Source: Elusimicrobiota bacterium
GTDB taxonomy: Bacteria; Elusimicrobiota; Elusimicrobia; UBA1565; JACRDR01
Reading direction: 5' to 3'
Length of the DNA: 64,000 bases
Assembly: GCA_041694815.1 (NCBI GenBank)
Contig: JBGFSC010000007.1
Span: 64,138-128,137 of the forward strand
Of the stretch, positions 490 through 3,243 are shown piece by piece. Made by a program: the position numbers and the translations under genes. A model generated the notes under the pieces. That model ran no database searches and was not told the DNA's origin. It saw only the letters and a list, made by a program, of their open reading frames with translations. The stretch's first letter is position 1, and each line of letters opens with the position of its first letter.

Positions 490-646
490 CCCGCCTCCCC
501 TCAAGTATGAGCTATTTTACCAAAAATGCAAGAGGGCCCTGGCGCTTGGGCCACAGGGGGCCAACATCATTTCGTTGGAGGGCCGTTCTTCCGGGCACCC
601 CTATTAATACGAACTAGGGCGAAAAAAGTTCCGTGAAAAAACGAGC

Positions 647-976
647 TGCGCCGGGCAGGACTTGAACCTGCGACCACCCCGTTATGCCTCTCACTCCGGG
701 CTTTCCCCGGCCGCAGCGCGTTGTGAGCTGGACTATGTCATGTCCCGCGAGGGGACCCGGGCGTATAGTCTCTGAACCTTTCCGCTGTGTCAGCGGACTT
801 GGCTGCCGATCGTCCAATCCCAGGATTTTTTGGCCGTCGCGCCTGCCGTCGCCGGCTACGCTGTGGCGTCCTGGGCTCTCAGGAGATCCCGGCAATTTGC
901 CCGGTTATCCACTGCCGATTGCTCGGCAAGGAGCCCAACTTGAGCGGGGCGCTCTAACCCACTGAGCTACCGGCGC
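647..976 (-). tRNA. tRNA with CAT anticodon (probably tRNA-Ile2), intron-split; exons 976-943 and 686-647; CCA not encoded
   Basis: Joined exons give GCGCCGG TA GCTC AGTGGGTTA GAGC G CCCCG CT|CATAA CGGGG TGGTC GCAGG TTCAAGT CCTGC CCGGCGC A, a complete cloverleaf. Confidence 0.95.
687..942 (-). ncRNA. Group I self-splicing intron, 256 nt, no ORF
   Basis: P AATTGCCGGGA, Q GATCGGCAGCCAAG, R GTTCAGAGACTA, S GACATAGTCC. P3 is CCGGGC/GCCCGG. The 5' exon ends in U, which pairs with G in P1 (GCU|CA...UGGGC). The intron ends in G. Confidence 0.95.
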
Positions 977-985
977 ATCAAAAGT

Positions 986-1016
986 ATTCTACTACTTCCA
1001 GCCTTTTAAATGGCAA
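986..1016 (-). promoter_or_regulatory. Candidate sigma70 promoter for the tRNA
   Basis: TTGCCA-N19-TAGAAT ending 9 nt before tRNA G1; the spacer is long. Confidence 0.45.
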
Positions 1017-1153
1017 AGACGGCAACCACGACCTTTGCTTCGATTACTGATATTCGCATAAGTAATAGATCATTTAAGGCAGGCCTCGGAAGCTTGGTGC
1101 CCATGATAGATACCCACTCTGCCGTGACGCTCATGCTGGCGACCGGATAAGCT

Positions 1154-1564
1154 CTAAATAGGATAGCTGCAATTTAAACTTGAGCGAAACAGCTGCTTTG
1201 AAAATCGCTTCGCCAACGATCGGACAAATTCGGCTTCCCGTCCCTGTGGAACGCCCACGATAACCATAACATGAAAGACTTCTTTGGTGCCAGGGTTCCG
1301 GAGCTGCGCGGCATGATTGAAGTCGATAATGCCCTTAAAGGATATTTCAGGAACAGAAGCGACAAGAGATATGGCATTAGCTTTAGTCGCCTCGGTATCT
1401 GCTGGGGTACTGCCAACCAGCGAGGGACCTTTAAAAGTCAAAACTACGATGCCAGGAGTGAACTCTTTGCATCCCAGGTCCAAGGTCGGCCCCTGTTCCT
1501 GTGAAAAAGCAGCCGAAGCAAACAACGCGACCACTAAGAATGCGCCGTAATTTATCTGAACCAT
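1154..1564 (-). CDS. Secreted protein resembling a stand-alone subtilase (S8) prodomain
   Basis: Signal peptide; motifs EFTPGIVVLTFK and VGVPQGREAEFVRSL; GGAGAGG before the ATG. Confidence 0.55.
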   Translation of the reverse strand: MVQINYGAFLVVALFASAAFSQEQGPTLDLGCKEFTPGIVVLTFKGPSLVGSTPADTEATKANAISLVASVPEISFKGIIDFNHAAQLRNPGTKEVFHVMVIVGVPQGREAEFVRSLAKRFSKQLFRSSLNCSYPI

Positions 1565-3148: not shown

Positions 3149-3169
3149 GCTGACGCCGCTAATTCTCAC

Positions 3170-3217
3170 GGTGCCAGGGATTGACTTTCGCCTAGGCGAA
3201 AGTCAATCCCTGGCACC
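3170..3217. repeat. Perfect 48-bp palindrome (REP/MITE-like), copy 1
   Basis: GGTGCCAGGGATTGACTTTCGCCT|AGGCGAAAGTCAATCCCTGGCACC. Confidence 0.9.
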
Positions 3218-3243
3218 ATCATTACGGGAGTGATGACATCGCA

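Follow-up and report, generated by a model that had tools for sequence, protein, structure and literature searches.

The minus strand between positions 976 and 647 of the window very probably carries a single-copy, non-initiator tRNA(CAU) gene, most likely for tRNA-Ile2, which is interrupted at U33/C34 by a 256-nt IC3-like group I intron removed by standard splicing. The window is the 64,000-nucleotide stretch analysed here, from Elusimicrobiota bacterium (assembly GCA_041694815.1, contig JBGFSC010000007.1, positions 64,138-128,137 of the forward strand), and all positions below are window positions unless a contig or locus is named. The organism is uncultured, and its genome assembly amounts to 2.77 Mb in 54 contigs, with a completeness of 97.8%.

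The split gene was read from the sequence and is detected with the intron option of ARAGORN, and its 5′ exon matches intron-less orthologues. The 5′ exon (976..943, minus strand, 34 nt, with a 3′ end in ...CCCCGCT) reads GCGCCGG-TA-GCTC-AGTGGGTTA-GAGC-G-CCCCG-CT, that is, the 5′ strand of the acceptor stem (GCGCCGG), the D arm, the 5′ strand of the anticodon stem (CCCCG) and the loop bases C32 and U33. The 3′ exon (686..647, minus strand, 40 nt) runs from CATAACGGGG to CCGGCGCA, the CCA not being encoded. It reads CATAA-CGGGG-TGGTC-GCAGG-TTCAAGT-CCTGC-CCGGCGC-A, and provides C34 A35 U36 A37 A38, the anticodon-stem strand CGGGG, the variable loop, the T arm, the acceptor strand CCGGCGC and the discriminator A73. 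The intron (942..687, minus strand, 256 nt) was recognised by its match to Rfam RF00028, by covariation and by nine homologues. It starts with CAAGTT (first bases CAAGTTGGGC) and ends with GAGAGG, the last base, at 687, being the omega G. Intron base i corresponds to window position 943−i.

Placement of the splice sites was examined by enumerating the eight possible positions in the anticodon loop. A U at −1 together with a G at omega was obtained for position 2 only (CU|CAUAA), meaning an insertion after the second anticodon-loop base, at U33/C34, which is position “2” in the numbering of Williams. Position 5, after U36, would leave an A at −1, a T at omega and the anticodon CAA. With the chosen placement, the computed spliced product is a clean cloverleaf of 74 nt with anticodon CAT according to ARAGORN, and the predicted exon junction is CCCCGCU-CAUAACGGGG. 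Among relatives, ARAGORN reported 17 intron-less CAT tRNAs at 16 loci, a set consisting of orthologues and at least one degraded second copy. All of them have the loop CTCATAA (...GCTCATAAC...), exactly the one predicted for the spliced product. The CU|CAUAA placement is thus supported, since the intron-less orthologues read the same loop independently. The junction proposed by the ARAGORN intron option, which finds the split gene with its 256-nt intron, is shifted, and the gene is labelled Leu(CAA). We rejected this junction, as it has an A at −1 and a T at omega, and a loop absent from every intron-less orthologue. In its default mode, ARAGORN finds no tRNA at this locus, as had been anticipated for standard callers in the first-pass annotation of this DNA.

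The covariance search with RF00028 that this annotation had recommended gave a match on the minus strand from 966 to 710 (model positions 1-253, 46.1 bits, E 1.2e-9), the only one in the whole 2.77-Mb genome. The match is sub-threshold, because its score is below the Rfam gathering score of 50. Other members of the family described below score 57.1 bits (in genome G151) and 44.6 bits (in G314). The two overlapping 93-aa open reading frames that had been pointed out here are indeed in the ORF listing, at 614..895 on the minus strand and 684..965 on the plus strand, over the tRNA and the intron. Both are probably spurious, since the structured RNA that they overlap shows conservation of its base pairs. 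The intron has no ORF of its own and no endonuclease gene. A promoter and terminator consensus scan over 500..1200 found none adjoining the gene.

A P1-P9 fold, together with the tRNA stems, was drawn from the sequence, and pairs were counted on an alignment of 8 pre-tRNAs. Standard pairs were found in 97.5% of 785 cells, compared to 32-47% when the 3′ partners were slid by 1-3 columns. This control favours the drawn structure, because the structure was derived from one of the eight aligned sequences; counting pairs changed on both sides is free of that bias. Such two-sided changes affected 33 of the 99 pairs, 27 of them inside the intron, a number that none of 500 shuffles reached. The core helices P3 to P8 and the P3/P7 pseudoknot are present, and pairing ranges from 87 to 100% per helix over the eight sequences. 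Independently, the minimum-free-energy fold (z = −3.45) recovers P2, P3, P4, P5 with its extension, P6, P8, P9a and P9b.

All helices lie on the minus strand. P1 (933..945) is formed by exon bases G31, C32 and U33 and intron base C1 with the guide GGGC (intron bases 7-10, window 936..933). Its G-C, C-G and U.G pairs are found in 8/8 aligned sequences, the U33.G wobble at the 5′ splice site thus being invariant. At the fourth pair, four sequences have C-G and the other four U.G. The P2 hairpin (909..931), closed by a GNRA-type loop, GCAA in this copy, has 9 pairs, 5 of which changed on both sides, and is found in the minimum-free-energy fold. In P3 (899..904 with 762..757), 3 of the 6 pairs changed on both sides and 100% of the cells are paired, the 3′ strand (757..762) being placed by the covariation count. 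P4 (894..889 with 809..804), also recovered by energy minimisation, encloses P5 and an extension resembling P5a-c (888..810). Five of the 7 pairs of P5a changed on both sides, and the inner hairpin is almost invariant over the eight sequences. The P6 and P6a region covers 776..803, with 5 of 6 pairs of P6a changed on both sides. P7, which crosses P3 to form the pseudoknot, pairs 765..770 with 736..731. Both strands, the 3′ one being 731..736, are backed by the covariation count, and the 5′ strand also by the RF00028 alignment; 5 of its 6 pairs are invariant, and 97.9% of the cells are paired. P8 (742..756) is a hairpin of 5 pairs, 2 of them changed on both sides. The 3′ part of the intron (690..727) folds into a three-way junction made of the P9 stem, P9a and P9b, the latter with a GAAA-type loop, and 5 pairs in total changed on both sides there. 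P10 is weak: pairing of C34 with the guide is always possible, and pairing of A35 only in 4 of the 8 aligned copies. By analogy with its nearest outside relative, a tRNA-Leu(UAA) intron, the intron may be assigned to the small tRNA type and called IC3-like; in the database cited in Williams 2020 (bioRxiv 10.1101/2020.01.27.920355), each of the four classical tRNA types is labelled IC3.

These results bear out most of what had first been read from the letters: a cloverleaf interrupted by 256 nt with group I core elements, a U.G wobble and a terminal G, and CU|CAUAA as the sole placement, one in eight, that obeys the U/G rule. The suggestion that the intron begins with CA like the 3′ exon, as fits an exchange between P1 and P10, holds for this copy and fails as a rule for the family, as the start is CA in 5 of 9 copies and TA or TG in the other 4.

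The distribution of the intron was first assessed with a core pattern (P7 5′ strand, gap, P7 3′ strand) scanned over 185,579 species, with one genome each. Six hits were obtained, all in Elusimicrobia/Elusimicrobiota MAGs, which agrees with the earlier statement that the lineage is non-cyanobacterial. In metagenomes and viruses, the same pattern matched one viral contig and 4 metagenome contigs, of which one was new. By blastn, 4 of the 61 genomes examined from the same order contain the intron, as do 5 of the 401 that were sampled across the phylum, the genome under study being counted both times. This Elusimicrobiota intron family is rare (5/401 genomes), and its hosts belong to four families (f1, f2, f3 and f8), all of one class. 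Overall, nine distinct copies were collected, of 256-276 nt and 74-88% identical, all in the same tRNA and at the same site. In all nine, the base at −1 is U, the omega base is G and the 3′ exon begins with CATAACGG, and the guide GGGC is invariant across the family. A survey of related genomes, also recommended at first reading, thus yielded both intron-bearing copies, nine in number, and intron-less alleles with the CTCATAA loop. That the whole arrangement is a chance resemblance or an assembly chimera, with no intron at all and with the 93-aa ORFs as the real genes, is scarcely credible. Both ORFs do exist, but the same arrangement recurs in metagenome contigs and in assemblies made independently for four families of the class, and conservation tracks base pairs, not codons.

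Elsewhere in the window, 3168-3219 is a perfect inverted repeat some 50 nt long (CGGTGCCAGGGATTGACTTTCGCCT / AGGCGAAAGTCAATCCCTGGCACC). Matches to several microRNA models were obtained there on both strands. They are far below gathering scores, look like spurious matches to the palindrome and are separate from the intron.

The identity of the interrupted tRNA was then considered. Its G1-C72 and C11-G24 pairs show, in agreement with the first reading, that it is not an initiator (C1xA72, A11-U24), and the initiator tRNA of the genome, with C1xA72, is encoded by a separate, uninterrupted gene on contig C25. The next acceptor pairs are G3-C70, C4-G69 and C5-G68. According to the accessible part of Silva et al. 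2006, G3, A3, C70 or T70 mark tRNA-Ile(CAT), and are diagnostic because tRNA-Met and tRNA-fMet usually carry C3-G70; in that same part, G3 or C70 is reported as never found in Met or fMet. Using ARAGORN, the CAT genes found elsewhere in the genome were one initiator, one fragment (contig C54) and one Met-like gene (contig C20), and no second tRNA of the host type was found in the whole genome. The C20 tRNA, also a non-initiator, has G2-C71, C3-G70 and G4-C69. Its G2-C71 and C3-G70 make an acceptor that we take to be of the MetRS type. This tRNA type was matched in 57 of the 61 relatives searched, intron-bearing genomes included, and all 30 orthologues fetched keep G1 G2 C3 G4, with G2-C71 and C3-G70, and the loop TTCATAA. 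The acceptor-stem differences and this conservation in relatives indicate that the host tRNA and the C20 tRNA are two distinct, co-existing types. Judging by the published acceptor-stem discriminators, it is highly probable that the host would be the tRNA-Ile2, of the lysidine type.

A TilS protein is present in the genome, scoring 181.5 bits against a cut-off of 93.6. The candidate (L038:1396-2265, contig C15) is 289 aa long from the first ATG, and in Pfam only the PP-loop domain was matched, and none of the C-terminal domains of TilS. ARAGORN detected no gene for a tRNA-Ile(UAU) in the genome. Of the 690,046 codons counted in 1,395 long ORFs, a crude set, 3,421 are ATA, which amounts to 11.7% of the Ile codons.

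The same intron and site could also reside in an elongator tRNA-Met, the C20 tRNA then being the real tRNA-Ile2. We hold this to be unlikely, although several observations point that way. Over bases 6-68, the C20 tRNA shares about 84% identity with the tRNA-Ile(GAU) of this genome on contig C35, and its best annotated full-length-like matches in E. coli include a tRNA-Ile(CAT) annotated by PGAP. Three of the nine intron-bearing genes (L022, L023 and L027) have a Met-like C3-G70, with C4-G69 kept. Moreover, a short TilS may make no use of acceptor-stem determinants; in Aquifex, such short enzymes reportedly need not read the acceptor stem. Against this stand the G3 of 6 of the 9 intron-bearing genes and of most intron-less orthologues, a base that Met and fMet never carry in the part of the Silva survey cited above, and the C4-G69 pair, which every one of the 9 intron-bearing genes has, as do 16 of the 17 tRNAs called without an intron, the exception being the degraded copy. 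The constancy of G2-C71 and C3-G70 in the C20 type also speaks for a tRNA-Met there. The six best annotated phage matches of the C20 tRNA are tRNA-Met as well, which is weak evidence because ARAGORN-style annotation labels every CAT tRNA as Met. When the 3′ exon, an intron-less orthologue and the C20 tRNA were compared by BLAST to annotated E. coli and phages, matches to Lys, Arg, Met and Ile tRNAs were obtained alike, which did not tell the two tRNA types apart.

Partial or duplicated CAT genes were encountered during this search. At one locus of a relative (L011, G049:C11), two intron-less Ile2-type copies lie about 1.3 kb apart, the second with a degraded acceptor 5′ end. The fragment at C54:94489-94564, called “tRNA-Met(CAT)” by ARAGORN, has a 3′ half identical to that of the C25 initiator and an unrelated 5′ half; this resembles the duplicated 3′ end of a tRNA that an element leaves behind when it integrates into a tRNA gene. 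At C20:58979-59019, about 1.1 kb from the full gene of the Met-type tRNA (C20:57819-57891), 41 nt repeat the 5′ half of that gene at 98% identity, perhaps also left over from an integration or a duplication.

Returning to the host as a tRNA-Ile2, its gene is single-copy and needed by the cell, from which it would follow that the intron must splice. The opposite reading, a decayed remnant no longer able to splice in what would be a pseudogene, could draw on the RF00028 score below the gathering cut-off, on the lack of a homing endonuclease and on the rarity of the family in the phylum. It is nevertheless very improbable, since the genome, 97.8% complete, has TilS, uses ATA codons and contains no other gene of this tRNA type. 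In addition, compensatory changes have preserved all core helices in the nine copies, at identities of 74-88%, and no variation was seen in the guide GGGC, in the U at −1 or in the omega G.

Splicing would proceed along the usual two steps. P1 would form between the internal guide GGGC and the end of the 5′ exon, G31 C32 U33, placing U33.G at the splice site, and a free guanosine bound in P7 would attack after U33. The terminal G at 687 would then replace the guanosine, and the 3′-OH of U33 would attack after this terminal G, joining CU to CAUAA and restoring the CUCAUAA anticodon loop. Only after splicing would TilS modify C34 to lysidine, for AUA reading, and IleRS charge the tRNA. Catalysis, as well as this order of splicing and modification, is inferred from the model. 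The sequencing runs listed for the stretch were three DNA runs, each with a 0.04 share of its words, and no RNA run. The intron itself would be part of a radiation of tRNA group I introns in this Elusimicrobiota class.

Other introns of the class were collected with RF00028, which gave matches in 41 of 151 sampled genomes, with up to five per genome. [quoted passage not shown] Fifty class loci (in the series L071-L125) were typed with ARAGORN and the U/G rule, 13 of them without a clear call. The commonest typed host was tRNA-Asn(GUU), and Leu(UAA), Phe(GAA), Arg(UCU) and initiator tRNAs were found as well. Eight loci (L096, L098, L110, L113, L119, L121, L122 and L123) are true initiator tRNAs split at CU|CAUAA. 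Several introns of the class are 500-700 nt long and may hold ORFs.

Introns outside the family were scored with an nhmmer sequence profile of its nine members. The best outsider was the tRNA-Leu(UAA) intron of a phage (86 bits, profile positions 34-228), followed by an Arg(UCU) intron (39.7 bits) and by fMet introns at 32 bits and below (L096 = 32). Among these outsiders, only fMet introns and one Arg(UCU) intron were aligned by the profile up to the 3′ end. The guide GGGCUC is common to the family and to the fMet introns L096 and L119, while L098 and L110 start differently, and a similar P9 end, GCCG[A/T]AGTGG..G|CATAAC, is found in fMet introns L096, L110 and L119. The phage intron lies in a 240-kb viral contig (L037/L101, G442, ~223.1-224.0 kb), where a tRNA-Leu(UAA) is split at CUU|AAA by 732 nt (RF00028, 70.9 bits) with an HNH-like ORF in the 5′ part. 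The same contig contains a second split tRNA (L102), with a 234-nt intron (RF00028, 38.3 bits), some 6 kb upstream of the split tRNA-Leu. A looser viral scan with the pattern AAGGTTCAGAGACTATAC returned 3 contigs; the two new ones, at 23-36 bits and with no recognisable split tRNA, were discarded.

At the level of sequence, these resemblances fit a movement of related introns between tRNA genes. A more precise scenario, which we put forward tentatively and regard as rather improbable, is that one lineage of small tRNA introns moved between tRNA genes of Elusimicrobiota without an endonuclease of its own. The Ile2 intron would then combine a core of the tRNA-Leu type with the guide and 3′-terminal domain of an initiator intron, and would have entered, probably by reverse splicing, a second tRNA with a GCU|CAUAA target.

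Compared to known systems, the closest by position is the initiator intron, fMet.2Ug, with the same site and the same CU|CAUAA target; cyanobacteria, among them Synechocystis PCC 6803 and Gloeobacter, are the classical hosts of this insertion at 33/34 (PMC8450103), so that the fMet-type site assigned at first reading, position “2”, is confirmed. The host differs, as it is not an initiator here (G1-C72, C11-G24). Similarity to the fMet introns of Elusimicrobiota is low over the whole sequence, as with L096 at 32 bits on the family profile, and nothing in this 202-nt copy, the sole one aligned, was aligned to the long P5 extension. The closest by host are the Ile2 introns, which include those of Azoarcus sp. 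BH72 pre-tRNA-Ile(CAU), Acidovorax and Burkholderia (PMC8450103). These share with the present one the host kind and the state of a small, ORF-less group I intron in the anticodon loop, but the Azoarcus intron, “Ile2.5Ug”, sits after U36 (position 5, 36/37), whereas the present one sits after U33. The nearest relative outside the family is the phage tRNA-Leu(UAA) intron, 63% identical over 231 nt and with the same layout of the P5 extension, although it occupies another tRNA and another site (CUU|AAA, 34/35), has an HNH-like ORF and belongs to a phage rather than a bacterium. As for size and architecture, the Azoarcus intron is about 205 nt long, with neither the P5 extension nor the P9 three-way junction found here.

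The first-pass annotation had presented a fMet-type intron in a non-initiator tRNA of a non-cyanobacterial lineage as undescribed. This claim to novelty probably fails. Williams 2020 (bioRxiv 10.1101/2020.01.27.920355) raised the number of tRNA intron settings from the four classical ones (Leu.3Ug, Arg.5Ug, fMet.2Ug and Ile2.5Ug) to 21, among 5,292 introns, and an intron of the present kind at this site seems to be already catalogued. The name “Ile2.2Ug” is absent from the searchable literature texts, the table of the 21 settings in that preprint being an image, and the names “fMet.2Ug” and “Ile2.5Ug” are found in searchable literature only in the same preprint. The accessible parts of a database paper (PMC11835236) and of a review (PMC3984707) contain nothing on the U33/C34 site, and no paper in the searched literature contains “Elusimicrobi*” together with “group I intron”. 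Site, mechanism and host tRNA type all have precedents, and no new question is opened. What is new is an endonuclease-free, ninefold-sampled Elusimicrobiota family with a long P5 extension, a modest novelty.

The family nevertheless widens the range of tRNA group I introns by one phylum. Its nine covarying sequences, whose P5 extension is unusual and whose P9 is a three-way junction, could be of use in work on ribozyme structure. For the organism, the practical consequence is that the gene most likely decoding AUA is invisible to default tRNA finders, and two false 93-aa ORFs would be called instead, so that Elusimicrobiota annotations and checks of tRNA completeness will show a missing Ile2 or Met tRNA; the same problem of missed tRNAs is described for other lineages in the tRNAscan-SE 2.0 paper. 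Finally, if the tentative scenario of movement between tRNA genes is true, the family would represent a natural retargeting of a ribozyme through anticodon-loop identity.
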